DNA from: Pseudomonadota bacterium
GTDB taxonomy: Bacteria; Bdellovibrionota_C; UBA2361; OMII01
Direction of reading: 5' to 3'
Length of the DNA: 64,000 nt
NCBI GenBank assembly: GCA_046300175.1
Contig: JBKCMS010000065.1
Location: forward strand, 11,270 to 75,269
Position 1 is the stretch's first letter. Each line of letters opens with the position of its first letter. Both the position numbers and the translations under genes were made by a program. The notes beneath the pieces were generated by a model. It was given only the letters and a program-made list of their open reading frames with translations. It was not told the DNA's origin and ran no database searches. Positions 570-18,919 of the stretch are shown one piece after another.

Positions 570-573
570 TGCT

Positions 574-2114: not shown

Positions 2115-2130
2115 TTTTAGCCGAGGCGGG

Positions 2131-3222
2131 CTAAGCGTTTGCTGCCATTGCCCCACCGCTTAGGCGCTCTACCAACTCATCATGAATCTCAACCAAGATA
2201 TCATTTACATTGCGCGTAAGCCGCCAGTTTGGATAATGCTTTTGAAAGTGGCGCACATCAGATACCCACCAGATATGGTCACCAATTCGGTTCGACTCGG
2301 AGTACGCATAGTTCATCGGCCGCCCCGTGATCTGCTCGCATAGGGAGATCGCCTCTGCCATGGAGCAGTGGGAGAATCTGCTGCCGCCGATGTTATACAC
2401 TTCTCCTGAGCGGGGCGCTTTATAGAATTCATTGAAAGCGCTCACCAAATCAAAGCTATGTATATTGTCGCGCACCTGCTTGCCCTTGTATCCGTAAACC
2501 TGATACTGGGTTCCAGTGATGGCACACTTCATTAGGTAAGCGAGAAATCCGTGCAGCTCCGCTCCTGAGTGGCCTGGACCAGTTAGGCAGCCGCCGCGGA
2601 AGCACGCAGTCATCATTCCGAAGTATCTGCCGTATTCTTGTACTAGAACATCAGCGGCAACTTTGGAGGCCCCGAACAGCGAGTGTTTAGTCCTATCGAT
2701 ACTCATCCCCTCGTCGATACCGTGGGTATAGTAAGCGTGCGAAGTGTCGATATCCCACCGCGTGTCATGTTCAACTAGTGGCAAGCTGTTGGGGGTATCG
2801 CCATAGACCTTATTAGTAGAGCAGAAGATAAATACGGCTTCTGGTGCATGGCGCCGGGTCATCTCAAGCATCACTGACGTGCCGTTTGCATTGACTGTAA
2901 AGTCAGTGAATGGTTCCTTAGCCGCCCAATCGTGAGACGGCTGCGCTGCCGTGTGGATCACAAGTGAGATATCAGAGCTGTACTCAGCAAAAATCTTGCC
3001 GATAGCGTCTGCGTCACGGATGTCAGCAGAGTGGTGGGTGAAGGAGTTCCCAAGGTCTGCATGGAGACGCTCTTGAGACCACTGAGTAGACGCCTGTGCA
3101 CCAAAAAAGTAGCTGCGCATGTCGTTGTCTATGCCGACAACGCGCATGCCCTGTTTAGCAAAAAAACGGCACGATTCTGCGCCGATAAGACCTGAGGAGC
3201 CTGTGACGATGACTATACTCAT
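2131..3222 (-). CDS. NAD-dependent nucleotide-sugar epimerase (CDP-paratose/tyvelose 2-epimerase-like)
   Basis: [15 protein letters not shown] is a Rossmann GxxGxxG motif. [21 protein letters not shown] (a YxxxK-like catalytic region) and GKQVRDNIH resemble the Tyv/RfbE-type epimerase family. The start was set at the internal ATG 3222 (MSIVIVTG). Confidence 0.7.
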
Positions 3223-3320
3223 GGGGGAGCCTTTGTTAAACAAACACTCCCCAGGGTAATCCAAACATATTCCTATTTCAACTATGGTAGGAGCATAAAA
3301 AAGCCTATAATCTGGGTCGG

Positions 3321-5525
3321 TTAGCGGCTCAGATCGGCGGATGTGTTGTCACTACTTCTCGTTTTGTATGGTAATCTAGAACTCCACTGCTGCAGCAAGT
3401 GATCCAGGATATTTTTGGCGATGATCTCGTTTCCGGTATCGACAACGTGAAAATGGTCGAGGAATGTAGTTTGAGCATCTAGCGAGTCAAGGGCTGATGA
3501 GAGATCGATGACCGGCACACCATTACGTTGAAGTGTTTTTGATGCCAGCTGCATATCGGGATGAGCACTACTCAGCGCGCACTCGATTGGCTCGCCCGTG
3601 CAATTCGGTTTAGGAGCCCGACTGGACTGTTGATGCGAACTCAAGTGAGGTTGAAGAAAGGCAAGAAAATGTATCGAATTTTTCTTGGTAAGCTCATGTG
3701 CTTCTGAAATGACAGAGGCCCACTGCTGCGCTGTTTCATCGACTAGGCGTCCTCTAATTTCGCTGTCATTCAGATGCGGAAATAAGGGCTGTATTTCCGG
3801 AGTACCTAGAATCTCTATGGTTCGTCGCATGGCAGTGCTGTGCTCCTTAAAAAAAGCGAGTATGGCATTGGCAGGGCTGCGCTTTTGTGCTGCAAAAGAG
3901 GCGCGATCGCTACTATAGATCGTCCCGTGAGGGTTGCCTCTGTACACTCCCTGAACGATATCATTGACCCCGTCGTAGAAGATTACAGCCCGCGGCTGAT
4001 TCCCCTTAGAAAGCTCGATGGCCAATCGGCCTAGCTCCTGTGAAGCTTTGATTGAAGTAGTTCCGAAATTCTTCACCTTCCAGGGAATTGATCGTTGTAC
4101 CAGGAGACGTTGCAAGATGCTTGGCCATGTCAATTCGTTTGGAACCTCGGAGCAATACGTAGTTGACCCACCAAAAACCCAAATTTCACCATCAGCGGGA
4201 TCCAGAGAAGTATCCCATCCAGTAGTTACTCGCACTCCATTTTGAACTGTTATGAAAGGATCGCTTGAATCTTGCCGCAAGATTAAGTTCGTTCCAGCCT
4301 GTTGATACCATCCTACCTGTGCGATGGAGCTAAGCAGGAAATCCTCGGAAAACCATCTTTTAGAGCGATACGCTGGATGATTAACTCGTTTGGCAAACCC
4401 ATCTATGTATCCAGGGGTAGAGAGTAATTTAGAGTATCGCGAGTCGTGGGTTGCACGAGCTCGCACCTTAGAGATGATATCATCTGTAAGGTTTGCCTCT
4501 CCTCGCTCAGCATCAGCTCGGTGCAGCTCGCGGTCTATTGATGGGAAGATAGAATCCACTACCCGAGCGCCTCCTTCCAGTATGAAAAGAAGAGCTGCGG
4601 TGGGGGTGAGAGATAATATGATTGTGAGAAGGACCTTTCGTAGAATTCCATAAGCTATGAATATTCCAGTGCCCAGGAATGCGATGATTACTACTAGGCT
4701 GGTTAAAGCAAATGCTCTGCGATCTGCTCTTGAGCGCTCCTTATCAAGTGGTACCTGGATAGAAGACACTCCTAATCGCTCCAGCCCGAGTGAAAGCATC
4801 GGTTGATATGTTCGATTCGATAAGACTAGAGCATCAATCCGTACATATCCGGCTGGTTCTGCGGAAAAAACTAGCTTCTCAGCTTTGCGGGGTAAGGTTA
4901 TGGAAAATGGGATTGAGGTTGGGCGGGCTTGAGGGTTGAGGCCGTATGTCCATAAAGTGCCGTCACTCGGCTCGTATAGGTCGATTGTCTCCCGTGTATC
5001 GCCGATGCTGAGCATCAACTTCCCGCTTGCACGGCTTTTTAGGAGCATAATCCCGACTTCAGAAGCTTGTAAGTCAGCGCTGAGCTTCGACTTGAGTGTT
5101 GAAGTGCCCGCAAGTGCAGCAAACGGACTCCATGACGGTTGGTTGATCGATTCCCATGATTCGACGCCCGCCAGCTTGTCAAGCGACATTGGTCTTCCAT
5201 CCTGTAAGAGTTGTACCGCATGAACTGCCGTTGCCCCGGACAGAGGGTTTTTTTCCGGTGATATCTCCGCGTTAAATTTTATCCGAAGCGTTTCAGACCT
5301 CGCGTATGGAACCGGTATAATAAACTGATCCAATTGCGAATCTGCAACATCGAGCAGAGTAGCCCTAATTCCGGTTACAGAGAGTCCGTACGTTATTTCA
5401 AGCTTTGCATTAATCGGTTCAGAAGCGATCCAGGATCGAGATACATCGAAAGCTGGGACCGCACAAAACATCGAAAAGACTGCGGCGGCTAATCCAAGTA
5501 ACAATTCCGATCTAGGCGGCTTCAT
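3321..5525 (-). CDS. Large membrane-anchored protein with a C-terminal SGNH/GDSL-hydrolase-like domain, possibly a glycan O-acyl esterase or transferase
   Basis: The N-terminal signal/TM ([19 protein letters not shown]) and internal TM helices are followed by [10 protein letters not shown] (a GDS-like block I) and [10 protein letters not shown] (a GxND block III) in the C-terminal third. Confidence 0.5.
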
Positions 5526-5968
5526 GATTACTATTTACTGTAAAATCGCTGTCTGTAAGCTTAAAAAAATACTCAAACTGGTCTCGAAAATTCGGTTTTT
5601 AGCCATGTTTTTGAGATGCGCGGCGAGATAAACAACCCGAGGCGGAAAAGCAGAAACTGTATCACCAAGATAAGCGCACGGATTATCACGAATCCTGAAC
5701 AAATTAGCCTCCCCCATATAGTCAACCGTATGCAGAGTATAAATTCAAGGCCAGTTCTGGTAGTTTGCCAATGGGCGGAGCAGCTGTTGTCACTCAAGGC
5801 AAGGGTTATTAGCTCCTCATATTTGCTGTTTACTACAGCTCTCAAGCTATTTGTTGCTAGGTCTTACCAGTAGAGGCTTTGCAAGCAAAAGGATGTTCCT
5901 GGTGTGTCACCGGGGCGTCTAAGTCCTGGCATTTAGGAGGGGGGCTTGGTAGATATTTTGGGCGACAT

Positions 5969-6008
5969 CTAGAGCTGATTAGCCCGAATATTGCACGAGA
6001 GTGCGATG
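5969..6008. promoter_or_regulatory. Hairpin in the 690-bp divergent intergenic region
   Basis: ttagcccgaatattgcac-gagag-tgcgatgttcgggctaa forms a ~17-bp stem with one mismatch. It lies 210 nt upstream of the 6217 methyltransferase. Confidence 0.25.
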
Positions 6009-6216
6009 TTCGGGCTAACAGGTGCATGGATGCACTTGCAAATTCCGAAGCGCAGCGTAGGAATTTGGAGCCTACAGTTTGTGTGGGCACTGTTGATAGT
6101 TGCCGTGTAGCTGCTATCGTCAGTTCCGAATATAATCTTCAAAGAGAGAAGATGTTCGTCGGATGATGTGCTATTTGCCTGTTATAGTTGTCTTTATCGG
6201 AAATTAACGGTGACTT

Positions 6217-7230
6217 ATGGGGTTTAACGATTTAATAAGTGACTATTTAGTCGGGGAAGGTGGGCAAGAAACGCCACGTCACCCCTGTAGAGCCTGTGGT
6301 TCAGATAACACTCAACTGCGCGGTAGTAAGCCGGGCTGGACCTCTGCAACTGAATACTCATTCTATGATTGTCGAGCCTGCGGACTGTTATTTGTGGAAC
6401 CCTTCGCTGGCTTCGAGGTTTATAACGACGCCTATTACCGAGGCGAGGGGCCTGACCCTTTTGTTGACTATGAATCAGAGTATCGCGACTGGCGCTCTAC
6501 AGATCGGCGTATAGAACTCAATGACTGTGTTAGAATCGCGGAGCATTATCTGCGGAGAACGTTAGCAGATAGTGGAGTAACGGCAGAAGGGAGCACAGGA
6601 AGCTCCCCGAATTCTGAGCTAGGAAGACCTGTTCGCTGGCTAGACTTTGGATGTGGGGCCGGAGCGCTCCTCAAATGTTTAAGAGATCGCGGGGAGATTG
6701 CTGGCCGACCGATCAAGATAGTTGGTCACGATGTGGGTTCGTATGCCGAGGCTCTATCGTCCGTAGACCATTTCCAAATCCTCGCTATTGATGCTCTTAA
6801 TCAGCAGCCGGATGAGAGTTATGATGTGATTTCGATGATCGAAGTAATCGAGCACCTACCAGCTCCCGCAGAACAGATTAATTTGATCTCGCGCCTGCTA
6901 AAGCCAGGGGGATTGCTATTACTAACCACGGGCAACCTTCAAAGTCCGATGGCAAAGCGTCAGGGTATCTTCTATGGATACTGCGCCCCAGAGATACACA
7001 TTAGCCTTTTTAGCCCGCAAAGCCTGACTAAGCTTTATGAGCGCGCGGGATTATCATCTTTTCGAGTGAAATATCGGGGAGTGGTGGATTTTAAGGTGCT
7101 GAAAACCCTCAGACATCGACCGGTATTAAAATGTCTCGCACGACTATTGTTGCTGCTGCCGCCGATTCGAAGCATAGTCGATTTTCTGTTCGGAGTATCA
7201 GCGATGCCGTGCGCTATTAAGAGAGCGTAG
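6217..7230 (+). CDS. SAM-dependent methyltransferase with an N-terminal Cys4 zinc-ribbon
   Basis: CRACGSDN...YDCRACGL forms CxxC...CxxC at the N-terminus. It is followed by WLDFGCGAGALLKCL (motif I) and LKPGGLLLLTT. Confidence 0.7.
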   Translation: MGFNDLISDYLVGEGGQETPRHPCRACGSDNTQLRGSKPGWTSATEYSFYDCRACGLLFVEPFAGFEVYNDAYYRGEGPDPFVDYESEYRDWRSTDRRIELNDCVRIAEHYLRRTLADSGVTAEGSTGSSPNSELGRPVRWLDFGCGAGALLKCLRDRGEIAGRPIKIVGHDVGSYAEALSSVDHFQILAIDALNQQPDESYDVISMIEVIEHLPAPAEQINLISRLLKPGGLLLLTTGNLQSPMAKRQGIFYGYCAPEIHISLFSPQSLTKLYERAGLSSFRVKYRGVVDFKVLKTLRHRPVLKCLARLLLLLPPIRSIVDFLFGVSAMPCAIKRA

Positions 7231-7626: not shown

Positions 7627-8469
7627 CTAATCAAAATTAGCACACTTAGGTCTTGGTATTGATTCATTCGTTAAAACATCGGCGTTAGCAGCCTTGACCA
7701 CTTGCTTCACAGCCCCCGGATGTTCGTGAAGCTTGGAAAAGCGATGGCGTAGTATAGCACTTACCCAGTTAAATGGATCTCTGAGGATGCGAATCTTCTT
7801 GCCCTCCTCAAATCCGCGGGAGGTATATGAAACAGGTACTTCTACCGGCACGTGTCCGAGGCGAATAAGCTTGCCCGTAAGTTCGTAGTCAAAATCAAAA
7901 CGATTGGCCTCAAACAAAACTCCTTCAATGCATGACCGGCGAAATACCTTGTACATGGTGGTTGGGTCTGTGAGTTTCGTCCCGAATACTATATTAAATA
8001 GCGCGTGAAACAGGGTGCCGCCAAAGTTAAGCAGGGAAGCTTTTAAAGGCGAGTTCTCAAATTTTCTGATCTGCCAGCTGCCAGCAGCCATATGCCGACT
8101 GCCGAGAACAAAGGAGGCTCGTCCTTCCACGAGAGGGGCTAGTAATGCCGGATAATCGTTGGTGTCATACTCTGAATCAGCATCTTGAATGAGTACTAGG
8201 TCCCCTGTTGCCTCTTTTAGTCCCGCACGTATCGCATGCCCCTTGCCTCGAGGTGTATCTTGGAGCACTAGCTTAACTGAACCCGGCGATTGCAGATTAA
8301 TCTCTCGCGTAAAATCCTGGCAGATGGACCGAGATGCATCACTAGAGTTGCTTTCGACAATCACTATCTCTTTATTTATTCCCTGGAGGTCTTGCTTCCA
8401 CACCCGACGAAGTGTGTCCCCAACGAACTGTCCCTCGTTATATACCGCTACGATAATCGATAATTTCAT
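7627..8469 (-). CDS. Family 2 glycosyltransferase (polyprenyl-phosphate sugar transferase-like)
   Basis: MKLSIIVAVYNE is followed by DAS and LIQDADSEYD (a DxD-type motif), a typical GT2 fold signature. The start was set at the internal ATG 8469. Confidence 0.75.
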   Translation of the reverse strand: MKLSIIVAVYNEGQFVGDTLRRVWKQDLQGINKEIVIVESNSSDASRSICQDFTREINLQSPGSVKLVLQDTPRGKGHAIRAGLKEATGDLVLIQDADSEYDTNDYPALLAPLVEGRASFVLGSRHMAAGSWQIRKFENSPLKASLLNFGGTLFHALFNIVFGTKLTDPTTMYKVFRRSCIEGVLFEANRFDFDYELTGKLIRLGHVPVEVPVSYTSRGFEEGKKIRILRDPFNWVSAILRHRFSKLHEHPGAVKQVVKAANADVLTNESIPRPKCANFD

Positions 8470-8544
8470 AATGAGCCCCAGGCTTACAGGTAAGGGAGCA
8501 TGCAATCATGCACTCCCGGCTGATATCTATTATAGCAGGGATTT

Positions 8545-9522
8545 TCACAATAGCGACTTAGTGCCATCAAAATCGAAATGAAATCTGACTTCCTCTAGTC
8601 CTGCAAGGGACATAGCCTGCCTGAGGCGGGCTCTATCAGCTGCATAAAACATCAAAAAGCCACCGCCCCCCGCTCCAACTAGTTTACCTCCAACAGCTCC
8701 GTTGGTCATACCTAGAGAGTACCACTCGTCAATCTGAGGGTTGCTCATCCCCCCAGATCGCCTGCGTTTATTCTCCCAGTGTTCATGCATGATCTCTCCA
8801 AACTCAGCGCAGCGACCCAACTCTAGGGCCTTTCTGCTCCTTGCGCCTAGTTCCCGGACGTAGTGCAGATTTTCGAACATCTTGGGGTCAGCCTTTTTGG
8901 TTCGGTCATCTTGATCTCGCAATATGCTGCCAGCCGCTCGATCAAAGCCGGTGAAAAATAGCAATAGATTGTCTTCCAGGTCGAAGAGAGTTTCGCGTGA
9001 TACGGAGAGCGGTTGGGCCTCAACGCTGCCATCAGGATTAAATTCGAAACATGTTATGCCTCCATAGGCGGCTATATACTGGTCCTGCTTACCGATGGGC
9101 TCATGTAGGCGATTCAGCTCGATCTCGCATGCTAATTCGGCTAACTCGTTTGGTAGGATCATTTGTCGTTTGTGGGAGTATAGAGCTTTGAGCAAAGCAG
9201 TGGTAAAGCTACCTGAAGAGCCCAATCCGGTCCCCGAGGGTATGTCTGCTAGCGTAGTTATCTCGATTTGCTGCTCAGGGAAATTCAAACACGCCAGGGC
9301 TTCACGAATTATTGGATGCTCAACTTCATGAAATGAATTAACTCGCTCCTGTTTTGAGTATTTAAGATATATTCCTGGTAGAAAGGGACGCATTACCGTT
9401 ACGTATACGTACTTGTCTATCGCAGCCGAGAGAACAGTTCCGCCGAATTGGGTGTAGTATGACGGTAGGTCTGTTCCGCCGCCACCCAAGCTAATACGAA
9501 GTGGACTACGTGCGATAATCAT
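8545..9522 (-). CDS. hddA: D-glycero-alpha-D-manno-heptose 7-phosphate kinase (GHMP kinase, HddA-like)
   Basis: The N-terminus MIIARSPLRISLGGGGTDLPSYY and the GHMP ATP motif PSGTGLGSSGSFTTALL closely match the HddA/WcbL family. Confidence 0.8.
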   Translation of the reverse strand: MIIARSPLRISLGGGGTDLPSYYTQFGGTVLSAAIDKYVYVTVMRPFLPGIYLKYSKQERVNSFHEVEHPIIREALACLNFPEQQIEITTLADIPSGTGLGSSGSFTTALLKALYSHKRQMILPNELAELACEIELNRLHEPIGKQDQYIAAYGGITCFEFNPDGSVEAQPLSVSRETLFDLEDNLLLFFTGFDRAAGSILRDQDDRTKKADPKMFENLHYVRELGARSRKALELGRCAEFGEIMHEHWENKRRRSGGMSNPQIDEWYSLGMTNGAVGGKLVGAGGGGFLMFYAADRARLRQAMSLAGLEEVRFHFDFDGTKSLL

Positions 9523-10504
9523 ATCCTGACCTCTTGTAGATTGACTCTACTATTTTTACGGCAGCATAGGCGTCGTGAATACTAGAGCTAGGAGCTCTTC
9601 TAAGCCGGACATCCTCTAAAAATTCCTCGAACTCTCGTTCCCACGAAGTATCTCGCTGCGGGTACTCCCAAGATGTTGTTTCTGGCGGCCCCATCTCAGG
9701 GAGCATCTTGTACCACGTCAATCTTTCAACGCCGTAACTGCCACCAAGCCCTTCAATCTGAAGTTTGCCATGGCGGCCGTAGATTTCAAAAGAGAATAGG
9801 TTTTTCCACTCCGAACAACTAACGTGAAGGAAGGCAGTTTGGAGTTCGGCAGTGCGCAGGATCATAAAGGCATTGTCGTCGACGGGCATATCCCAGAAGC
9901 AAGTCTGGGCATGCCCGTTGACCTCCGAAAAGTCGCCGAGAAACCAACGTGATAGATCTATGAGGTGAACGCCTTGGTCAATCAGCTCACCTCCACCCGA
10001 GATCTTAGGATTGGCTCTCCACTCCTTTTCGTATCCAATACGGCCGCCGTGTCCATATCGGGAGCGAATAAACATAAGGGGCCCAATTGCACCTTCGTCA
10101 ATAAGTGCTCGAGCTTTGAGTAGGGCTGGATGATAGCGATGATTAAAGCCTACTCGAACTAGACCACCAGAGCGCTTAGCGGCCTCTATGATATGACTGA
10201 TCTCTTCAGCGCTCCGTCCCGCAGGTTTTTCTACTAAAACGTCCTTCCCAGCAGAAAGCGCCTGAATTGCTAAATTCGATAAAGAGTCGTTGGGAGTGGC
10301 AACGATCACTAAACGTGTTTCCGGGTCTGAAAGAGCCATAGACACATCCGAGGAGGACCGCACATCCTTGTACCTGGCAGCTAAAGCTTGAGCGCTGACC
10401 AGATTGGTATCAATACACCACCGCAGCTCGCAACCACATAGGGCGGCTGAGCGTTTGAGCCCGATAAGACCGCACCCGATAATCGATACGCCAAACGTGC
10501 TCAT
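9506..10504 (-). CDS. Gfo/Idh/MocA-family NAD(P)-dependent sugar oxidoreductase
   Basis: The N-terminal Rossmann motif VSIIGCGLIGLKRS and the overall architecture are typical of Gfo/Idh/MocA dehydrogenases. Confidence 0.75.
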   Translation of the reverse strand: MSTFGVSIIGCGLIGLKRSAALCGCELRWCIDTNLVSAQALAARYKDVRSSSDVSMALSDPETRLVIVATPNDSLSNLAIQALSAGKDVLVEKPAGRSAEEISHIIEAAKRSGGLVRVGFNHRYHPALLKARALIDEGAIGPLMFIRSRYGHGGRIGYEKEWRANPKISGGGELIDQGVHLIDLSRWFLGDFSEVNGHAQTCFWDMPVDDNAFMILRTAELQTAFLHVSCSEWKNLFSFEIYGRHGKLQIEGLGGSYGVERLTWYKMLPEMGPPETTSWEYPQRDTSWEREFEEFLEDVRLRRAPSSSIHDAYAAVKIVESIYKRSGYDYRT

Positions 10505-11382
10505 TTATCTCCCCAATCAAAACCACGATCTTTTCCGATTAACCGCCGCAGCGTATACACATCTGAATTGTTCAGTTCTGAACGGTAGAGAGGAAATTGC
10601 TCCCAGTTATCCCACAAAGCACTGATTAGTTTTCCGCTGATTCCATCACTTTGTGGACTGGCAAGGAAGAGGCATAGCGATACCGCAGGGCCAAATGGAG
10701 CCCCACCTGAATCTAGCTGCTCAAGAGCTCGCTTGTATGCGGCTTCTCCGATCCTCTCTGGGCCAGCGTCTAAAAGTTCACCTAGAAGGCGAGTATTCAG
10801 CGCGCCAGGTGCAACGGAATTTACATCGATGTTAAACTCACGAAGATCTTCAGCAAGAGACTCTGCATACCTGACTACAGCTACTTTTGAAGCGGCATAG
10901 GCTGTGAAGCGTGGGTTTGGTTGAGTCGCGCCTCCACCCGAGAGTTGTACAATTTTGCCGTAGCGCGCGTGCTTCATATACGGTACAACGGCCCGCGTCA
11001 TTAAAACCGAACCGAAAAGATTGACCTGAATAGTGTAGGTCCACTCATCCCAAGGAATCTCTTCGGTCGGGCCCTTAGGTCCATGAATTCCCGCGTTGTT
11101 GACGAGAATGTCTATTTTTCCGCTAAAAAGCTTGGAAGCGCTCTGGATAAGCCGAGTGACATCCGCTTCCTTTGAGACATCAGCTGTAATAGCAGCCAGA
11201 CTTTGGTCAGCGCTGAGATTGGAGCGAAGATTAGAGGCTGCAGCTTCAAGAGCTTCCCCGTTTCGGGCGCACATGCAGACGTTAGTCCCAGCCGCGACAA
11301 AGGCAGCAGCAAGTTGCAAGCCAAGTCCCTGACTTGCGCCGGTTATGATTGCTGTCTTACCTCTGAGTCCCTCCATCTGCAT
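10501..11382 (-). CDS. Short-chain dehydrogenase/reductase (SDR)
   Basis: KTAIITGASQGLGLQLA is a TGxxxGxG motif, NNAG is present, and YAASKVAV is the YxxxK catalytic motif. Confidence 0.8.
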   Translation of the reverse strand: MQMEGLRGKTAIITGASQGLGLQLAAAFVAAGTNVCMCARNGEALEAAASNLRSNLSADQSLAAITADVSKEADVTRLIQSASKLFSGKIDILVNNAGIHGPKGPTEEIPWDEWTYTIQVNLFGSVLMTRAVVPYMKHARYGKIVQLSGGGATQPNPRFTAYAASKVAVVRYAESLAEDLREFNIDVNSVAPGALNTRLLGELLDAGPERIGEAAYKRALEQLDSGGAPFGPAVSLCLFLASPQSDGISGKLISALWDNWEQFPLYRSELNNSDVYTLRRLIGKDRGFDWGDK

Positions 11383-11401
11383 GGTCCTCTAGCAGCGCTC
11401 C

Positions 11402-12400
11402 CTAGAGCCTACTCTCAAACACCCACTTATTATCAAGAAGCCAGCGCACTGTCGCCTTTACACCTTGCTCAATTGAGAGCTTGGGTTCCCAGCCCAGTGA
11501 GTTCACTTTGGAGGTGTCGAGAAATATAAACGGATTGTCGCCAGTCCAGCCGCGCTCGCCACCAGAGGTCTCTATCGTTGGCTTCACACCCAATTCTTGG
11601 CAGATCCAACCGACGGAGTTGAGAACCTCACAGTATTCTTTCGTGCCAAGATTGAATACTCCGACATTGTGTTGCTCGGATGTAGCAGCACGTTTGCCAA
11701 TGGTCCACAGAATAGCATCAAGGCAGTCCTGGACGTATAGGTAAGATTTTCTCTGCTTGCCGTTACCTAGCACGCGCAGGTGCGCTGGGTTTGAAATGAG
11801 TTGCTTGCAGAAATCAAAGACGTGCCCGTGCGTGTATCGCTCGCCAAGGATGGAGACGAAACGAAAGATATAACCCTCGAATCCGTATCCCTCACAATAG
11901 GCTTGTATTAGCCCTTCGCCGGCGACCTTTGATGCTCCGTAGAGAGAGGTCTGGACTGGAAATGGCGCGTCCTCCGGAGTAGGGATGACTTTCGCCTCGC
12001 CGTACACAGAGCCGGTTGATGAGAAAGCAATCCGCTTTACATCGTTGGCCCGCATCGCTTCGAGGACATTAAAGGTTGCAATCGTATTCTGCTGAAGATC
12101 GCGCTCGGGGTGATTGAGCCCAAACCTTACGTCGGCGTTGGCAGCGAAGTGAAAGACGATGTCCACACCGATAAGAGCTTCTTGAAGTTCGTTGAGCCTG
12201 AGGGTGTCTCCGCGGACTAGTCTAAACCGCGAGTTTTTTGATGCTGCCGAAAGGAACAGCTCCTGGCCGGTTGAGAAGTTGTCAAATCCGACCACTTCAT
12301 GCCCAAGAGAGAGCAGTCGGTCAACCATGGAGCTACCGATGAAGCCGGCGGCTCCAGTAACCAAGGCTCGAAGGGGTTGGTTAGAGAGGGGTGTCGTCAT
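11402..12400 (-). CDS. NAD-dependent epimerase/dehydratase (extended SDR), a candidate GDP-heptose/GDP-sugar modifying enzyme
   Basis: ALVTGAAGFIGSSMVDRLL and YGASKVAGE are the motifs. It is co-located with the GDP-heptose pathway genes. Confidence 0.8.
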   Translation of the reverse strand: MTTPLSNQPLRALVTGAAGFIGSSMVDRLLSLGHEVVGFDNFSTGQELFLSAASKNSRFRLVRGDTLRLNELQEALIGVDIVFHFAANADVRFGLNHPERDLQQNTIATFNVLEAMRANDVKRIAFSSTGSVYGEAKVIPTPEDAPFPVQTSLYGASKVAGEGLIQAYCEGYGFEGYIFRFVSILGERYTHGHVFDFCKQLISNPAHLRVLGNGKQRKSYLYVQDCLDAILWTIGKRAATSEQHNVGVFNLGTKEYCEVLNSVGWICQELGVKPTIETSGGERGWTGDNPFIFLDTSKVNSLGWEPKLSIEQGVKATVRWLLDNKWVFESRL

Positions 12401-12579
12401 GGTATCGCTCGAAAAATCCGGGGCTGTCAGGTGTCTTTATTTGGGCGCTCCGCGGTTTGACACGTGACTGAAAGAGCATGTAGCATTCTTGGTTTTAAAT
12501 CAACCAATAGGGCGGATTTGAAGTCAAATTACCGGTTGCTCAAGGGTGGTACGGAATATGTCGCGTTCTGGAGGATACA

Positions 12580-13311
12580 GTGACAGCTGAGCCGATTCTT
12601 CCAGTAGTGGTGCTAGCAGGGGGCCAAGCAACCCGGCTAAGGCCGATAACGGAGACCATTCCAAAATGCCTGGTTGAGGTTCAGGGTGTGCCATTTATCG
12701 ATATCCAGCTCCGACAGTTGGCAGGCCAGGGTGTGCGCCGAGTGTTTTTGCTGGTGGGCTACCTTGGCGAGATGGTGCGGCAACACGTAGGCACCGGCGA
12801 GCGGTATGGGCTCTCAGTAACGGTGGTTCAGGATGGGCCTAAATTACTCGGGACAGCCGGCTCGATCAAGGCAGCTCGCTCCCTCCTTCCTCCCATGTTT
12901 TTTGTTCTCTACGGGGATTCGTACTTGCGGTGCTCATATGCTGATGTTCAACGAGCGTTTGAGGCTGGTGCAAGACCTGTACTGATGACTGTGTTTAGGA
13001 ACGATAAGCAGTGGGACACTAGTAATGTGATATTTGCAGATGGCAGAGTGGTCAGGTACAGCAAAAGAAACCTTTCGCCAGATATGCGTCACATCGATTA
13101 TGGACTTATGGTGTTCAGTCGAGATGTGTTTGATACTGTCCCCGATTGGGAGCCCTATGATCTCGCAGCGGTGCTTGAAGAGCAGGTTAGCAGGGGTAAC
13201 GTGACCGGGTTTGAGGTTAATGAGCGCTTTTATGAGATCGGGTCGCACTCAGGGTTGAAGGATTTAGGTGAGTTTTTTGAATCGAGTGCAATTCGCAGCA
13301 GCGCAAGTTAG
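12580..13311 (+). CDS. hddC: Sugar-1-phosphate nucleotidyltransferase, probably D-glycero-alpha-D-manno-heptose 1-phosphate guanylyltransferase (HddC-like)
   Basis: VVLAGGQATRLRPITETIPKCLV is a G-x-G-T-R-L nucleotidyltransferase motif. It is small (243 aa) and sits in an operon context with gmhA and gmhB. Confidence 0.7.
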   Translation: MTAEPILPVVVLAGGQATRLRPITETIPKCLVEVQGVPFIDIQLRQLAGQGVRRVFLLVGYLGEMVRQHVGTGERYGLSVTVVQDGPKLLGTAGSIKAARSLLPPMFFVLYGDSYLRCSYADVQRAFEAGARPVLMTVFRNDKQWDTSNVIFADGRVVRYSKRNLSPDMRHIDYGLMVFSRDVFDTVPDWEPYDLAAVLEEQVSRGNVTGFEVNERFYEIGSHSGLKDLGEFFESSAIRSSAS

Positions 13312-13358
13312 TGCTTGGGAGTGGTGCGTTTGCAATAGATTGTTTAACCGTTATTAAC

Positions 13359-13976
13359 ATGGATAGGGTGATTGCTATGGAGTTCGCAGCGAAGTTTCTC
13401 GATGAAGTTCAAGAGGTGTGTCGCCGTCTAGATTGTGCAGAGATTGAGCGAATGGCGCAGTTGTTGGCAACGGTTCGTGAGTCAGGCGGGCGTTTGTTTA
13501 TTCTGGGAGTCGGTGGTAGCGCCGGTAACGCCGCGCACGCAGTGAACGATTTTCGAAAGATAGTTGGCATTGAGACCTACGCGCCAACAGATAATGTGTC
13601 TGAGCTTACTGCTCGCACGAACGATGAAGGTTGGAGTACGGTTTTTTCTGAGTGGTTGGCGGTGAGCCGCCTTTCATCAAAAGATGCAGTGCTGGTGTTC
13701 TCCGTGGGTGGGGGCGATCTAGCGCGTAATGTGAGTCCAAATCTCGTGGAGGCCCTGAAGTATGCCAAGGAGGTGGGGGCAAGGATAACTGGTATCGTTG
13801 GTCGTGATGGTGGATTTACTAAGACTATGGCTGATGTCTGTGTTGTAGTTCCAACAGTTAATCCGGACCACGTTACTCCCCACAGCGAGGCATTTCAGGG
13901 GGTAGTGTGGCACCTGCTAGTATCCCATCCACTCCTGAAAAAGCGGCAGACTAAATGGGAGGGAGCGGCTCGATGA
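13359..13976 (+). CDS. gmhA: Sedoheptulose 7-phosphate isomerase (SIS domain, GmhA)
   Basis: LFILGVGGSAGNAAHAVNDF is a SIS-domain motif and the size (~200 aa) fits GmhA. Start chosen at ATG 13359. Confidence 0.75.
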   Translation: MDRVIAMEFAAKFLDEVQEVCRRLDCAEIERMAQLLATVRESGGRLFILGVGGSAGNAAHAVNDFRKIVGIETYAPTDNVSELTARTNDEGWSTVFSEWLAVSRLSSKDAVLVFSVGGGDLARNVSPNLVEALKYAKEVGARITGIVGRDGGFTKTMADVCVVVPTVNPDHVTPHSEAFQGVVWHLLVSHPLLKKRQTKWEGAAR

Positions 13977-14509
13977 GCGGACCCAGAGCCGTTTTTCTTG
14001 ATCGGGATGGAGTTCTGAATGCCTCGGTTGTACGACATGGCAAGCCCTATCCGCCGGCCAACATAGCAGAGGTTGTTGTTCCTGATGATGTCCCCGAAGC
14101 GGTATCTATGCTGAAACGTGCCGGGTTTCTTCTTATCTGTTGCACGAACCAACCTGATGTTGGTAGGGGAACCCAGAGTATTCAAGAAGTTGAGCGGATA
14201 AACCGGTATCTTGCTGATCTCCTTGGATTGGACTCCGTTGAGGTGTGCTACGATGCAGCAGATGGAGGGCCCCGCAGAAAGCCGGAGCCGGGGATGCTGT
14301 TGGATGCAGCAGATCGTTTCAGTATCGATCTGTCGAGGAGCTTTATGGTTGGGGATAGGTGGCGTGATATCGAAGCTGGCCGTAGAGCTGGCTGCACACC
14401 GGTTTTCATAGACCTGGGTTACCACGAGCAGTGGCCGGTAGCTTTAGCAGAGCATGTGGTGTATTCATTAAGTGGTGCAGCTGAGCTAATAATGAAGCTT
14501 GCGAGATAA
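13973..14509 (+). CDS. gmhB: D,D-heptose 1,7-bisphosphate phosphatase (HAD-IIIA, GmhB)
   Basis: AVFLDRDGVLN is HAD motif I as seen in GmhB, and the size is ~180 aa. The ATG at 13973 is preceded by a GGGAGGG RBS and overlaps the gmhA stop. Confidence 0.75.
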   Translation: MSGPRAVFLDRDGVLNASVVRHGKPYPPANIAEVVVPDDVPEAVSMLKRAGFLLICCTNQPDVGRGTQSIQEVERINRYLADLLGLDSVEVCYDAADGGPRRKPEPGMLLDAADRFSIDLSRSFMVGDRWRDIEAGRRAGCTPVFIDLGYHEQWPVALAEHVVYSLSGAAELIMKLAR

Positions 14510-14558
14510 TATTTTTTTATAAGCTGGTTAATAGCTAGGTGGGTAAGAGTTAACTTTA

Positions 14559-15350
14559 TTGTTTCGGTTTGTGGCTATGGAAACTGTGACGCTTGAATCT
14601 GTGACTCTTGAAGCTTTAAGGGTGAAGTTGTTTGCCGATGGAGCTGACAAGGCCGGGATGCTTGAGATGTACGCTAATCCCTACATCAAAGGTTTCACCA
14701 CTAATCCAACGTTGATGCGCAAAGCGGGCATATCGGACTATCTTGGCTTTGCACAAGAGATTTTAGAGCATATTCCAGACCGGCCGCTCTCTCTTGAGGT
14801 TTTCTCGGACGATTTTGCAGAGATGGAGCTACAAGCTCTCAAGCTTGCCCGTTTAAGTGACACAGTTTACGTAAAGCTCCCGATCACCAACACCCGCGGA
14901 GAGTCGGCGTTACCGCTGGTTCGACGCCTAGCGGAAAGGGGAGTCAAGACAAATGTAACGGCAGTCATGACTCGAAAGCAGATAGAGGAGTCGCATGAGG
15001 CCTTGAAGAATGGGCCGGCCTGCTACTTATCTGTGTTTGCCGGTCGCATAGCCGATAGCGGGATTGATCCAGTGCCGCTAATGCGTGAGACGGTGCAGCA
15101 GATCAGCGGGTCATCGAATATAGAGCTTATCTGGGCCAGCCCGCGGGAACTGCTCAATGTTGTTCAGGCTCACAATGTAGGGTGCCACATAATCACTGCG
15201 ACCAATGATATCTTGAAAAAGCTGCCACTTCTGGGGAAAGATTTAGGGCAGTTTTCTCTGGAAACAGTTCAGATGTTCAGGAGCGACGCGGTTCAGGCTG
15301 GATTTTCGTTGCCTCTTAACGACGACCTACCTATGGCTGGTAATCAGTAG
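14559..15350 (+). CDS. tal: Transaldolase / fructose-6-phosphate aldolase family (type 3B)
   Basis: KGFTTNPTLM is the TTNPSL active-site region, the protein is ~250 aa, and it has the TIM-barrel aldolase pattern. It would supply sedoheptulose-7-P to GmhA. Confidence 0.7.
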   Translation: MFRFVAMETVTLESVTLEALRVKLFADGADKAGMLEMYANPYIKGFTTNPTLMRKAGISDYLGFAQEILEHIPDRPLSLEVFSDDFAEMELQALKLARLSDTVYVKLPITNTRGESALPLVRRLAERGVKTNVTAVMTRKQIEESHEALKNGPACYLSVFAGRIADSGIDPVPLMRETVQQISGSSNIELIWASPRELLNVVQAHNVGCHIITATNDILKKLPLLGKDLGQFSLETVQMFRSDAVQAGFSLPLNDDLPMAGNQ

Positions 15351-15466
15351 GCTGAAGCCTAGATTCTCACGGAAAGCGCCGCACAGCGGCAGAGAGTGAG
15401 GTTGGGTCCGAAATTTGACTGGCATCCGCTTGAGGCGGATTTAGAGCGAGCAGTGCAGAGTAATCT

Positions 15467-16438
15467 TTGTGGATGGTGAGTATGAGTGGGGTAGCTTTAG
15501 CTGATCAAGTTTCAGGGGCTGGTGGGGCAATCGTCCACTCTGGGTGTGTAGCCTGCGGGGGTAGCGCCGTGCACTCATTTCGCTCGTTTAAGACGCGAAG
15601 TGTAAGTCAGTGCTCTTCGTGTGGTCTTCAATGGCAAAATCCACAACCTTCGGATTCGGAGTTGGCTGAAATCTATGGAACTTACTATTTCATCGGCTCT
15701 GATGATGGTGAGGTTCGAGCCCGGAAATTGCTAATCAAACAGCTGACGGCGAAGTTGTACCTGGACATGATCGAAGGATACCGAGCTGCTTCGGGTAGAG
15801 GCGCTGATGCTGGAGGGGCAATTCTAGAAGTAGGCAGCGGGCAGGGTGAATTCCTCAGCGAGGCTCTAAGTCGGGGCTACTCGGTAACCGGGGTAGAGTA
15901 CTCGTCCGATGCCTGTGAGTCAGCGCGTTCATCTCTGGCTGAGCTAAATCCGCAGCGGGATAGGTTTAGCATAGAGCAGGGGGCGCTAGAGGCAGTTAAT
16001 CTTCGTCCTGGCACTTTCGATCTCTGTGTGATGAACGATGTGATCGAGCATGTTCGGGAACCTCAGAAGACACTGGCACGCTTAAGAGAGTTGCTGAAGC
16101 CAGGAGGGGTTATCTTCATTGCAACGCCAAGCCTGGATTCCTGGTCTGCGAAACTCATGGGCAGTCTATGGATGGAGTACAAAGATGAACACCTTTTCTT
16201 TTTCTCAAACAAGTCTCTGACAAAGATACTGGAGAATAATGGGTTCTCCCGTGTGGCATTAAAGCCTGGTCTAAAGGTGTTGACGCTTGAGTATGTGGCG
16301 CAACACTTCGATAAGTTCCCAGTACCGGGATTCTCTCCATTGGTTAAGGGGTGTGTCGGGCTCCTACCCCGTTCTGTTGCCAGGCGACCTATTCGAATAG
16401 TGGCAAGTGGGGTAATAGCCATGGCAACAGCTAGCTAA
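15467..16438 (+). CDS. SAM-dependent methyltransferase with an N-terminal Cys4 zinc-ribbon (paralog-like to the 6217-7230 gene in architecture)
   Basis: CVACGGSAVHSF...CSSCGLQW forms CxxC...CxxC at the N-terminus. It is followed by ILEVGSGQGEFL (motif I) and LKPGGVIFIATP. Confidence 0.7.
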   Translation: MWMVSMSGVALADQVSGAGGAIVHSGCVACGGSAVHSFRSFKTRSVSQCSSCGLQWQNPQPSDSELAEIYGTYYFIGSDDGEVRARKLLIKQLTAKLYLDMIEGYRAASGRGADAGGAILEVGSGQGEFLSEALSRGYSVTGVEYSSDACESARSSLAELNPQRDRFSIEQGALEAVNLRPGTFDLCVMNDVIEHVREPQKTLARLRELLKPGGVIFIATPSLDSWSAKLMGSLWMEYKDEHLFFFSNKSLTKILENNGFSRVALKPGLKVLTLEYVAQHFDKFPVPGFSPLVKGCVGLLPRSVARRPIRIVASGVIAMATAS

Positions 16439-16585: not shown

Positions 16586-17443
16586 ATGCACACTATCGCG
16601 CCATCTTCACAATCTGACTCTTTGCTTCAGGTATTCACCAATGTGCTTGCGCCGTGGCATACCCTAAAGGAATCTCGAGGGCTGATTGCCAGCCTAGCGC
16701 GCCGAGAGGTGCGCGCTCGCTTTGCAGGTACGTTGCTGGGAGGGGCTTGGACGGTCATATCGCCCCTGATTATGTTAGCGATCTATAGTTTTGTTTTTGG
16801 GGTTGTTTTTAAAGGTAAGTGGGGACAAAGCAACGAGCAGAGTCTGGCCAACTTTGCTCTCATAATCTTCTGTAGTATCTCGGCATTTGCCATCTTTCAA
16901 GAGTGTCTGGTCAAAGCGCCATCATTGGTGATTTCGCAGCCTAATTTAGTAAAGCGAGTGGTGTTTCCAACAGAAACCCTGGTACTAAGTTCCCTAGCAG
17001 CAGCGCTCTTTCAAGCTCTGATAAATTTCACCTTGGTGATCTGCGCTCTCTATGTGCTGAACGGCGCGGTTCCAGTGACGGTGCTGTTGCTTCCTGTAAT
17101 GCTTTTACCTTTGGTATTCATGACCCTTGGGGCAGCCTGGCTCCTTGCAAGTTTGGGAGTTTTTTTCCGCGATATACAGCATATAGTTGGTCTTGTAGCG
17201 AATGCTTTGCTTTTTCTGACGCCGATATTTTTCTCACTAGAGATGTTGCCTTCATCAGTGAGATTTTACGCTGAGCTGAATCCGTTGGCTCCGATCATTG
17301 AGGGGATAAGAGATGTAGTTTTGTGGGGAGAGATTCCGAATCTGAACTCTTTTGTCGTCTCTCTGGTTATATCTTGGTGTGTAATGCAGCTAGGGTATGC
17401 TGTCTTTATGCGTCTCAAGCCAACTTTTGCCGATGTCATCTAA
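16586..17443 (+). CDS. wzm: ABC-2 type polysaccharide export permease (Wzm-like)
   Basis: It has about 6 TM helices and is ~285 aa, with an ABC-2 signature region. It lies immediately upstream of the ATPase. Confidence 0.75.
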   Translation: MHTIAPSSQSDSLLQVFTNVLAPWHTLKESRGLIASLARREVRARFAGTLLGGAWTVISPLIMLAIYSFVFGVVFKGKWGQSNEQSLANFALIIFCSISAFAIFQECLVKAPSLVISQPNLVKRVVFPTETLVLSSLAAALFQALINFTLVICALYVLNGAVPVTVLLLPVMLLPLVFMTLGAAWLLASLGVFFRDIQHIVGLVANALLFLTPIFFSLEMLPSSVRFYAELNPLAPIIEGIRDVVLWGEIPNLNSFVVSLVISWCVMQLGYAVFMRLKPTFADVI

Positions 17444-17458
17444 GGGAACTAGGGAGCC

Positions 17459-18919
17459 ATGGCGCTGGTGCAAGGATTCGAATCAGAGACGGGTAGGAGC
17501 TTAGACACATTGGCTACAGCTGAGGGTCGACGAGCAGCAGAGGATTTGGTCATCAATCTCTCCGGAGTTTCAAAGCTGTATCGTATTTGGGCGTCGCCAG
17601 CTGCTCGATTTAAGGCGCCGGTTCTGTCAAAGGTGGCGGGCCTATTGCCGGCAGCTGCAAAACTCCGTGATAAATTAAGCGCTAAAGCTGCTGGCATGTG
17701 CCGAGATTTCTATGCAGTGTCTGATGTCAATCTACAGGTGCGCAGAGGTGAGTCAGTGGCGATCGTTGGTCGAAACGGTGCCGGAAAGAGCACTCTGCTG
17801 CAGATAATTGCCGGAACTTTACAGGCCACATCAGGCAGTGTTGCCGTTCAGGGAAGGGTGGCTGCTCTATTGGAATTGGGAAGCGGATTCAATCCGGAAT
17901 TTACTGGCCGGGAGAATGTCTATTTGAATGCGTCGATTCTCGGGCTGTCTAAAGACGAGATTAACCAACGCTTTGAATCGATCGTGGAATTTGCAGAGAT
18001 AGGTGAATATCTTGATCAACCTGTAAAAACCTATTCCAGTGGCATGGTCATGCGGCTCGCCTTTGCCGTCCAAACAGCTATTGAACCAGATGTCCTGATT
18101 GTTGATGAAGCGCTCTCTGTAGGGGACAGCCTGTTTCAAGCTAAATGTATGACGCGCATGCGTAAGATGCTTGATAATGGCCTGACGTTGCTTTTTGTAA
18201 CTCACGATGTGTCTTTAGTCACCCAGCTATGCCGTAAAGCTCTTTATTTGCGAAACGGTGAGCAGAGACTTTTTGGTAATGCAGCAGATGTGGTCGATCT
18301 CTATCTAAGGGATTTGCGTGACACCCAGGCAGGAGTTGTTAGAAGTGATTTAAAGCCTATAAGTAGCGATACAAGTGAGGTGACCCATGCCTCATCATCA
18401 GTGGAGTTTTTAGAGGACGCAGGCTTTGATGATCGTGTTAAAAGCTACCGCTACGGTTCGGGACGTGCGCGAGTTAGAGCTTTGCAAATACTTGGAGCAG
18501 ACGGTGAGCCCTCGATTTCTTTCTGCTTCAGGGAAAAGATAACGGTACGTGCCCACATTGAAACCTACGGTGAAGTTAGTAATCTAAATTGTTGTCTGCT
18601 TATAAGAAATAGACTCGGTGTCGAGATTCTTCACGCTACGTCTCACCAATACAGACACCGCTTCCCAGTGATGAAGACGGGAGAACGTATAGTGGTGGAT
18701 ATATCCTTTGAGAATATTTTAAAGGCCGGCCAAGGATATGCGATCAGCTTTACTGTGAATGATACCGTTACCCCAGAGAGCCAAGAGATACTAGATCTAA
18801 TCGAGTTGGCGGCGTCATTTGAGGTCAGACATGACCCTACTAATCCAATCTACTACTTGATTTGGCATCCATTTGAATTTTCTCATCACGCGACACTAGG
18901 CGGTGAGGTGCTCTTATGA
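17459..18919 (+). CDS. wzt: ABC transporter ATP-binding protein (Wzt-like) with a C-terminal extension (~200 aa), a putative glycan-terminus-binding domain
   Basis: Walker A is GRNGAGKSTLLQ, the signature is YSSGMVMRLAF, and Walker B is LIVDEALSVGD. The extra C-terminal domain is as in the O-antigen Wzt proteins. Confidence 0.8.
   Translation: MALVQGFESETGRSLDTLATAEGRRAAEDLVINLSGVSKLYRIWASPAARFKAPVLSKVAGLLPAAAKLRDKLSAKAAGMCRDFYAVSDVNLQVRRGESVAIVGRNGAGKSTLLQIIAGTLQATSGSVAVQGRVAALLELGSGFNPEFTGRENVYLNASILGLSKDEINQRFESIVEFAEIGEYLDQPVKTYSSGMVMRLAFAVQTAIEPDVLIVDEALSVGDSLFQAKCMTRMRKMLDNGLTLLFVTHDVSLVTQLCRKALYLRNGEQRLFGNAADVVDLYLRDLRDTQAGVVRSDLKPISSDTSEVTHASSSVEFLEDAGFDDRVKSYRYGSGRARVRALQILGADGEPSISFCFREKITVRAHIETYGEVSNLNCCLLIRNRLGVEILHATSHQYRHRFPVMKTGERIVVDISFENILKAGQGYAISFTVNDTVTPESQEILDLIELAASFEVRHDPTNPIYYLIWHPFEFSHHATLGGEVLL

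Follow-up and report, generated by a model that had tools for sequence, protein, structure and literature searches.

Heptoses have mostly been discussed as sugars of the lipopolysaccharide (LPS) core or of pathogen capsules. The enzymes described for the Campylobacter heptoses comprise a C4-dehydrogenase, a C4,6-dehydratase and C3/C5-epimerases, together with a C3-dehydratase, NADPH-dependent C4-reductases and mutases (PMC10680097), and a described relative of one of the genes treated here, PhGal4E_1 (8RDG), is a promiscuous 4-epimerase preferring GDP-sugars (PMC12171764). Here we analyzed a 64,000-nt stretch of contig JBKCMS010000065.1 (GCA_046300175.1; this whole stretch is called the window, and all coordinates are window positions) and focused on a divergent cassette of eight sugar-metabolism genes within it. 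Judging from homology, residue conservation and gene neighborhood, we consider it fairly likely that the cassette makes a nucleotide-activated heptose, probably GDP-linked, that is tailored for a surface glycan. The window most likely carries one copy of a horizontally mobile sugar-precursor unit of 8–11 genes.

The eight open reading frames (ORFs) lie where an initial annotation of this DNA had placed them and contain the motifs that it quoted (AVFLDRDGVLN, TTNPTL and the kinase N-terminus), and all eight products clear the cutoffs of Pfam domain models. The cassette is laid out as follows:

8545–9522, minus strand: GHMP sugar-phosphate kinase, HddA-like (anomeric kinase); PF00288 and PF08544; begins MIIARSPLRISLGGGGTD
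9506–10504, minus strand: Gfo/Idh/MocA oxidoreductase; assigned by Pfam
10501–11382, minus strand: classical short-chain dehydrogenase/reductase (SDR); PF00106, 183 bits
11402–12400, minus strand: extended SDR, putative nucleoside diphosphate (NDP)-sugar 4-epimerase of a GDP-Gal4E-related clade; homology to PDB 3ehe and 8rdg
12457–12486, plus strand: sigma-70-like promoter, TTGACA-18-TAGCAT, 10/12 matches; consensus match only
12580–13311, plus strand: sugar-1-phosphate nucleotidyltransferase, HddC/MurU-like; PF00483
13311–13976, plus strand: SIS-domain ketose-phosphate isomerase, GmhA-like; PF13580
13955–14509, plus strand: HAD-IIIA phosphatase, GmhB-like; TIGR01662 and TIGR01656; AVFLDRDGVLN
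14559–15350, plus strand: transaldolase, TIGR02134 type; TTNPTL motif

The four minus-strand genes overlap or lie at most 19 bp apart, and the minus and plus arms diverge from a 179-bp spacer holding the sigma-70-like site, of which 0.2 were expected in shuffled sequences. Two of the ORF starts are probably placed too far upstream. The SIS ORF opens with GTG at 13311 and its relatives are 199–202 aa long, which puts the start near 13359 or 13377; position 13359, the start in the initial annotation, is an internal ATG of this ORF and a plausible true start because of the length of these relatives. Likewise, the transaldolase ORF opens with TTG at 14559, and its relatives of 238–254 aa indicate a start at 14577 or later.

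Distribution and modularity of the cassette

The kinase subfamily of the cassette (~326 aa) is very large, with at least 8000 candidates at E <1e-20, the best 120 of which are all at least 72% identical. A scan of 185,579 species-representative genomes returned at least 600 matching stretches, at least 593 of them encoding a relative of the kinase, and this breadth suggests a second, much wider-spread NDP-heptose route. From these stretches, 80 loci were kept, and the 48 that had enough flanking sequence were used for the synteny counts. The carriers belong to the Acidobacteriota, Chloroflexota, Verrucomicrobiota, Planctomycetota, Spirochaetota, Chlorobiota, Margulisiibacteriota and Myxococcota as well as to the alpha-, beta-, gamma- and delta-proteobacteria, Legionellales, Bifidobacteriaceae and Oscillospiraceae, Gram-positive lineages being included. 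The cassette is also present on plasmid 3 of the pig pathogen Lawsonia intracellularis (NC_008014.1) and on Rhizobium chromids. When the window proteins were compared with the kept loci by tblastn, the eight genes were found to travel together at 50–67% median identity, the kinase relatives being 62–75% identical to the window kinase; the Wzm/Wzt, glycosyltransferase and other flanking genes of the window do not travel with the cassette.

Among the 48 loci, the kinase is accompanied by the nucleotidyltransferase in 43, the SIS protein in 43, the transaldolase in 39 and the HAD phosphatase in 30. The tailoring genes are present somewhat more variably: the extended SDR in 35, the classical SDR in 30, the Gfo enzyme in 29, and a gene of the UDP-glucose/GDP-mannose-dehydrogenase family (hereafter, UGDH-family gene) in 21. 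The usual order on one strand is extended SDR, UGDH, classical SDR, Gfo, kinase, nucleotidyltransferase, SIS, HAD and transaldolase. Chance clustering of common sugar genes was rejected as an explanation, since this synteny recurs in dozens of loci from unrelated phyla. Only the core (kinase, nucleotidyltransferase, SIS, transaldolase and, optionally, HAD) is found in 8/48 loci, and 6–7 loci have the extended SDR without the classical SDR or Gfo enzyme. The latter two occur together in 28 of the 31 loci having either, and the UGDH-family gene is limited to loci with the classical SDR (21/21). The UGDH-family product passes a generic nucleotide-sugar dehydrogenase model and is nearest to UDP-glucose 6-dehydrogenases, though below their cutoff. 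Such a pattern would be expected if a core pathway supplied an activated sugar and further, dispensable enzymes tailored it, and the UGDH-family partner, as a nucleotide-sugar enzyme, is consistent with tailoring on NDP-sugars.

The cross-phylum identity of the kinase and the 67% median identity of the SIS protein exceed the ~50% identity of the window PheT to its nearest named relatives, which are Oligoflexia and 'Deltaproteobacteria' metagenome-assembled genomes (MAGs); PheT matches down to ~60% identity came from metagenomes only, and the window belongs to an uncultured lineage. The higher conservation of the cassette proteins suggests that the cassette has been passed on horizontally and has been kept by strong purifying selection.

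Core enzymes and the proposed activated sugar

In the route that we propose, the transaldolase would make sedoheptulose-7-phosphate (S7P) from fructose-6-phosphate (F6P) and erythrose-4-phosphate, and the SIS isomerase would convert it to an aldoheptose-7-phosphate. The GHMP kinase would then phosphorylate O1 to give a heptose-1,7-bisphosphate, the HAD-IIIA phosphatase would remove the 7-phosphate to leave heptose-1-phosphate, and the nucleotidyltransferase would turn this into an NDP-heptose, with GDP favored. At the level of the NDP-sugar, the extended SDR would invert C4 directly, and the Gfo enzyme (with NAD+) followed by the classical SDR (with NADPH) would form an oxidize-reduce pair inverting another hydroxyl group, so that an epimerized, non-deoxy heptose would result. 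A family 2 glycosyltransferase (GT2) of the cassette would use the sugar, possibly via a polyprenyl-phosphate carrier, a methyltransferase would possibly O-methylate it, and the glycan would be exported via the neighboring Wzm/Wzt. We infer the identity and chain length of the substrate, the nucleotide, the epimerized positions and the fate of the sugar from the comparisons below, in which a residue-level conservation check found the catalytic residues intact in the cassette enzymes, with two conservative swaps in the SIS protein.

The nearest PDB matches of the kinase are heptose-7-phosphate kinases (3k85, 4.7e-49; 4usk (WcbL), 4.2e-46; 4n3o, 1.5e-37), compared with 3.5e-19 for fucokinase and 1e-9 or weaker for mevalonate kinases or galactokinases; in this comparison, no other GHMP kinase comes as near to the cassette kinase as the heptokinases do. 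R9, K145 and D147 show no variation among 81 sequences. The catalytic residues of WcbL are R13 and D163 (PMC4691232), and the alignment offsets suggest that R9 and D147 correspond to them. We used the NCBIfam equivalog cutoffs as a test of membership in the curated heptose-enzyme families, and here the kinase scored 160.2 bits against NF049969 (HddA), not reaching the cutoff of 600. In RefSeq and at NCBI, members of the kinase subfamily are labeled 'galactokinase', 'GHMP kinase' or 'kinase', the other cassette genes bear generic names, and JGI uses HddA. The name 'galactokinase' is very likely a systematic misannotation, and the generic RefSeq names hide the pathway from routine annotation. 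The basic heptose reading is not new, as the label HddA for the kinase is already in use in automated KEGG/JGI annotation.

The SIS protein reached neither the TIGR00441 GmhA cutoff (55.4, cutoff 209.45) nor that of NF001628 (45, cutoff 265), and its PDB matches are GmhA only, all of them weak (E 4.5e-13 and weaker). The catalytic and metal residues of GmhA, which we take to be H64, E68, Q175 and H183 (B. pseudomallei numbering), align with H76, D80, E193 and H201 of the SIS protein, the C-terminal part being aligned by eye. Among 65 cassette-linked sequences, H76 and D80 never vary, and the 63 sequences without a gap at the other two columns all have E193 and H201. As read from this alignment, the active-site layout would be GmhA-like with two conservative swaps.

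The HAD phosphatase passed the generic models TIGR01662 (83.7, cutoff 44.6) and TIGR01656 (106.1, cutoff 84.15) and fell under all GmhB cutoffs (NF006506, 92.2/178; TIGR00213, 69/149.6; NF050049 for the alpha-anomer GmhB, 56.3/250), its nearest named PDB matches being GmhB at ~1e-15. The nucleophile motif D16-R-D18 is invariant. Most cassette-linked phosphatases have a cysteine cluster, C98...C105-x-C107-R-K-P, that resembles the GmhB zinc loop. In the window phosphatase, Gly105 and Arg107 replace two of these cysteines while the DxD motif is intact, and any metal site at the cluster would therefore be gone.

Phenylalanine at the position equivalent to F160 of the cassette transaldolase is the mark of transaldolases, and tyrosine that of F6P aldolases, as exemplified by TalB F178Y and the T. 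acidophilum enzyme. The cassette enzyme has D27, K106 and F160 invariant and E80 in 56/57 sequences, and it passed TIGR02134 (313.9 bits, cutoff 281.95). An F6P-aldolase role was rejected, because residue 160 is Phe and not Tyr. The proposal of a dedicated transaldolase in the initial annotation is borne out by these transaldolase-type residues and by the co-location with kinase relatives in 39/48 loci; the conserved synteny together with the modularity indicates that the transaldolase is a true pathway component of the cassette.

The nucleotidyltransferase scored higher with MurU (NF045761, 103 bits, cutoff 250) than with HddC (NF049965, 59.4, cutoff 300), both below cutoff, and the order was the same in the PDB (MurU 4y7t, 5e-18; HddC 6jq8, 7e-13). 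In HddC, Glu80 of the motif E-x-x-P-L-G-T-G-G-A reads the guanine, and uridylyltransferases use Gln (PMC6981941). The corresponding region of the window enzyme is Q-D-G-P-K-L-L-G-T-A-G-S, and HMMER aligned its Asp85 to HddC Glu80 with a one-residue insertion. Across the cassette family, whose motif is D-G-x-x-L-L-G-T-G-G-A, this position is Asp in 68 and Glu in 1 of 69 sequences, G-T-G-G-A is the consensus, and the Gln neighboring Asp85 in the window enzyme is not conserved. A carboxylate at Asp85 would favor a purine nucleotide, and GDP is the favored candidate for the nucleotide carrier of the sugar, although an insertion of 1–2 residues makes the alignments with HddC, with MurU and with a GMPP-like enzyme differ in this region. 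The earlier designation as an HddC-like guanylyltransferase is at odds with the better score of MurU. Where a complete GmhA/HddA/GmhB/HddC set had been annotated, the four-step pathway type is retained and the kinase, SIS and HAD proteins are nearest to heptose enzymes, but all four proteins fall under the equivalog cutoffs. Of the family models that had been named there as checks, PF00288/PF08544 and TIGR01662 were passed, and TIGR00441 was failed.

Oxidoreductases and alternative routes

The best PDB matches of the extended SDR are A. fulgidus GalE-1 (3ehe, 7.5e-83) and PhGal4E_1 (8rdg, 1.5e-69), and dehydratases match at 1e-28 or weaker. The key residues of PhGal4E_1 are P80, R83, N174 and H182 with the catalytic [S/T]..Y-x3-K, N174 being a proposed contact to the C6-OH of GDP-Glc (PMC12171764). 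The extended SDR keeps the catalytic Thr, Y145 and K149 as well as R83 and H182, and has A80, G121, S122 and S174, invariant in 51/51 cassette-linked sequences, in place of the P, S, T and N of PhGal4E_1. By sequence, it is a homologue of the GDP-Gal4E subgroup but belongs to a distinct subgroup, and the four smaller side chains in its pocket would fit a larger C5 substituent or a bulkier substrate. NDP-sugar 4,6-dehydratases carry an Asp-Glu pair right after the catalytic Ser/Thr (T-D-E in RmlB). At these positions, the extended SDR reads T-G-S, with G-S invariant in the 51 relatives, and a 4,6-dehydratase role was rejected because the Asp-Glu pair after the catalytic Thr is missing. Without this pair, a 6-deoxyheptose is unlikely, and of the two products that the initial annotation had offered, a 6-deoxy or an epimerized heptose, the latter is likelier given the 4-epimerase type of the enzyme.

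The Gfo enzyme is nearest in the PDB to the sugar C3-dehydrogenases 6a3f and 7xr9, and the substrates of its nearest relatives are free sugars or glycosides (levoglucosan, inositols, C-glycosides) rather than NDP-sugars. Its EKP motif and D176/H180 are invariant, Asp32 follows beta2, and the enzyme probably oxidizes a secondary alcohol of a sugar with NAD+. The classical SDR has no NCBIfam equivalog match; its S148/Y162/K166 are invariant, Arg40 follows beta2 in 36/48 sequences, and it probably serves as an NADPH-dependent ketoreductase paired with the Gfo enzyme. The Asp after beta2 suggests NAD for the former and the Arg NADP for the latter, and their tight co-occurrence suggests an oxidize-then-reduce epimerization pair. 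The initial annotation had taken the three oxidoreductases for the enzyme types of Campylobacter heptose modification; this is not supported, as Gfo/Idh/MocA enzymes, classical SDRs and direct 4-epimerases are not in that set (PMC10680097).

Several observations weigh against the reading of the product as an epimerized GDP-heptose. The four core proteins (kinase, nucleotidyltransferase, SIS and HAD) lie far under the NCBIfam equivalog cutoffs, and the only NCBIfam passes are TIGR02134 and the generic HAD-IIIA/GHMP models. The likeness of the SIS protein to GmhA is distant (~1e-13), and its by-eye alignment reads H/D/E/H in place of H/E/Q/H. The nucleotidyltransferase scores better with the UDP-type MurU than with HddC and is without the exact HddC motif, the extended SDR has replaced two of the four residues that are key in characterized GDP-Gal4E (P80A and N174S), and the NCBIfam and PDB comparisons gave no characterized close relative of the Gfo enzyme or the classical SDR that acts on an NDP-heptose. 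Finally, no account of the cassette was found in the literature, of which few subscription journals were covered; within the same coverage, neither a transaldolase embedded in a heptose pathway nor a direct GDP-heptose 4-epimerase was found, and the papers on the Kuenenia S-layer oligoheptose gave no named genes matching the cassette.

How far these points favor another route was weighed for each alternative. The extended SDR, together with the UGDH-family enzyme in the relatives, could be a separate UDP-hexose/hexuronate module (such as one leading from UDP-Glc via UDP-GlcA to UDP-GalA), leaving only the Gfo enzyme and classical SDR, or neither, to work on the heptose. The two genes are indeed adjacent in the relatives in a classic dehydrogenase/4-epimerase pairing, the PDB deposition of the best match, 3ehe, names it a UDP-glucose 4-epimerase, and the UGDH-family gene comes closest to UDP-glucose 6-dehydrogenases without reaching their cutoff. 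However, the extended SDR accompanies the core without UGDH in many loci including the window, UGDH tracks the classical SDR (21/21) and not merely the extended SDR, the characterized relative of the extended SDR prefers GDP-sugars, and its four invariant smaller pocket residues fit a bulkier substrate; we regard this module as rather unlikely. Tailoring could also take place earlier, with the Gfo enzyme and classical SDR acting on the sugar phosphate before activation, so that stereochemistry is set at the heptose-7-phosphate or ketose stage and the 4-epimerase alone tailors the NDP-sugar. This would agree with the substrates of the Gfo relatives, which are free sugars or glycosides and not NDP-sugars, and with the position of the classical SDR and Gfo genes directly upstream of the kinase in most loci. 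We consider it hardly probable, as 17/48 loci that have neither gene keep the conserved kinase, SIS and nucleotidyltransferase, which late tailoring fits better, and as the UGDH-family nucleotide-sugar gene depends on the presence of Gfo/SDR.

A canonical Campylobacter-like route with deoxygenation would account for the proximity of the kinase to the WcbL, Cj1425-type and B. thetaiotaomicron heptokinases, for the HddA name that the automatic JGI annotation gives to the kinase family, and for the presence of an extended SDR. This SDR, however, has G-S and not Asp-Glu and matches 4-epimerases at 1e-69 to 1e-83, no C3/C5-epimerase-type gene is present among the annotated genes of the locus, every equivalog cutoff is missed widely, and Gfo/Idh/MocA enzymes and classical SDRs stand outside the Campylobacter set (PMC10680097), which makes such a route very unlikely. 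Just as improbable is a non-heptose product, for which the transaldolase would build another ketose phosphate, such as octulose-8-phosphate from ribose-5-phosphate, to be processed by the core. It draws on the distance of the four core enzymes from the heptose equivalogs, despite 50–67% identity among themselves across phyla, and on the difficulty of justifying a pathway-specific transaldolase where S7P should already be made; but the nearest characterized homologues are all heptose enzymes, the transaldolase passes a housekeeping-type model with the standard catalytic set, and there is no positive sign of another chain length. In a broader form, the cassette could be a mobile route to an undescribed nucleotide sugar, built from a non-standard ketose phosphate (e.g., octulose-8-phosphate) or, in the UGDH-bearing relatives, being an NDP-hepturonic acid. 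Such a sugar would explain why the core enzymes are far from the canonical ones yet mutually conserved across more than 10 phyla, and the window would then hold the dehydrogenase-less, neutral-sugar variant of a widespread surface sugar; we consider this unlikely.

Genomic surroundings and comparison with described systems

The genes outside the eight-gene cassette that bear on the use of the sugar are the following:

7627–8505, minus strand: GT2 glycosyltransferase, directly downstream of the kinase; PF00535
15467–16438, plus strand: S-adenosylmethionine (SAM) methyltransferase, directly downstream of the transaldolase; PF13489 and related models; N-terminal CxxC pairs
16586–18919, plus strand: Wzm/Wzt ABC exporter; PF01061, and PF00005 with PF14524 Wzt_C (C-terminal glycan-binding domain)
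24637–26331, plus strand: polytopic membrane protein, 564 aa, ~9–11 hydrophobic segments
3321–5525, minus strand: 734-aa protein; signal/anchor at the N-terminus, hydrophobic segments in the interior, weak GDSL/SGNH hydrolase domain at the C-terminus

The closest relatives of the window locus, L082 and L083, encode a kinase 84% identical to that of the window, have the same divergent layout and are linked to Wzm/Wzt. In both, the methyltransferase follows the transaldolase (66–67% identical, same position), the GT2 follows the kinase (65% identical, same position), and a UGDH-family gene lies between the extended and classical SDR genes. No UGDH-family homologue was found anywhere in the window, where only 19 bp (11383–11401) separate the two SDR genes, and it looks as if the lineage of the window has lost this gene cleanly; from this loss, a neutral rather than an acidic sugar is predicted here. 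The best NCBIfam matches of the GT2 are AglJ, ArnC, dolichyl-phosphate (Dol-P)-hexose transferase and PpgS, all below cutoff, and its resemblance to polyprenyl-phosphate sugar synthases would mean indirect delivery of the sugar. GT2 homologues (44–56% identity) lie 0–2 kb from the cassette in 10 loci, and in three loci the methyltransferase and the GT2 are adjacent to each other. Since these two genes cap both arms and recur with the cassette elsewhere, the functional unit is probably one of 10 genes (7627–16438) rather than eight.

The Wzm/Wzt pair is the likely export route of the polymer, and it is plausible that the downstream glycosyltransferase and ABC-transporter machinery uses the sugar; the cassette copy of the window, itself a variant, would then supply a polysaccharide locus of the ABC-transporter type. 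The polytopic protein has no Pfam or NCBIfam match and 5 homologues in 5.8 billion clusters, and a 33% identical homologue adjoins the cassette methyltransferase in L082. A role as a GT-C-like transferase, or as a polymerase/ligase acting on the heptose, is possible; its AlphaFold model was too poor to classify the fold (mean predicted local distance difference test (pLDDT) score of 50.7). For the 734-aa protein, neither an NCBIfam match nor, among the 80 related loci, a homologue was found; it may modify O-acyl groups of a glycan. Five methyltransferases, one of them of the FkbM type, are encoded within 490–7230, 15467–16438 and 26328–27227. In other ABC-transporter systems, methyltransferases and a C-terminal carbohydrate-binding domain of Wzt go with a methylated, chain-terminating cap, and by analogy the glycan may be heavily O-methylated. 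An Rfam scan gave no riboswitch or leader in the divergent intergenic region or with the sugar cassette, and two tRNA genes (51084–51165, minus strand; 58429–58501, plus strand) were its sole matches in the window.

Environmental glycobiology has a gap here that identification of the product would close, correcting a systematic misannotation as well, and the enzymes in prospect are a probable GDP-heptose 4-epimerase and a Gfo/SDR epimerizing pair. Related combinations of enzymes are known from other nucleotide sugars. The pathway to UDP-2,3-diacetamido-2,3-dideoxy-mannuronic acid uses the UGDH-family enzyme WbpA and the Gfo/Idh/MocA 3-dehydrogenase WbpB, followed by WbpE, WbpD and WbpI. Relatives of the cassette resemble it in pairing a UGDH-family dehydrogenase with a Gfo/Idh/MocA enzyme on one nucleotide sugar, and differ from it in having a ketoreductase-type SDR instead of an aminotransferase and acetyltransferase; the match to WbpB is weak (2e-8), and the window is without UGDH. 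With the C. jejuni system (Cj1427 C4-dehydrogenase and DmhA 4,6-dehydratase), the cassette shares the logic of a keto intermediate and the use of a separate oxidase and NADPH reductase (PMC10680097), whereas its enzymes come from the Gfo/Idh/MocA, classical SDR and self-contained 4-epimerase families. No epimerase of the C3/C5 type was found among the genes annotated at 490–36286, where the tailoring genes are those for the Gfo/Idh/MocA enzyme, the classical SDR and the GalE-type extended SDR in place of a Cj1427-type C4-dehydrogenase, C3/C5-epimerases and GDP-heptose C4-reductases. With neither such an epimerase nor a C3-dehydratase or 4,6-dehydratase, there is no evident route to deoxyheptoses.

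The extended SDR has strong full-length homology (1.5e-69 to 7.5e-83) to the GDP-Gal4E subgroup, represented by PhGal4E_1 (8RDG/8RDH) and the enzymes of A. fulgidus (3EHE) and P. calidifontis (3ICP/3KO8). Unlike these, it has the changes P80A, S121G, T122S and N174S fixed in 51/51 sequences, and it is a bacterial enzyme within a heptose cassette. With the classical GmhA/HddA/GmhB/HddC route, the cassette has in common its four fold classes and the logical sequence of their steps (SIS, GHMP, HAD-IIIA, RmlA-fold), and the enzymes of that route are the nearest solved relatives of its kinase, isomerase and phosphatase. It differs from the classical route in its built-in transaldolase, its sub-cutoff scores, the H/D/E/H residues of the SIS protein, the altered nucleotidyltransferase motif and its spread over many phyla. 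Compared with these systems, what is new is a distinct, very widespread and modular subfamily that supplies its own precursor and whose tailoring set is not that of Campylobacter.

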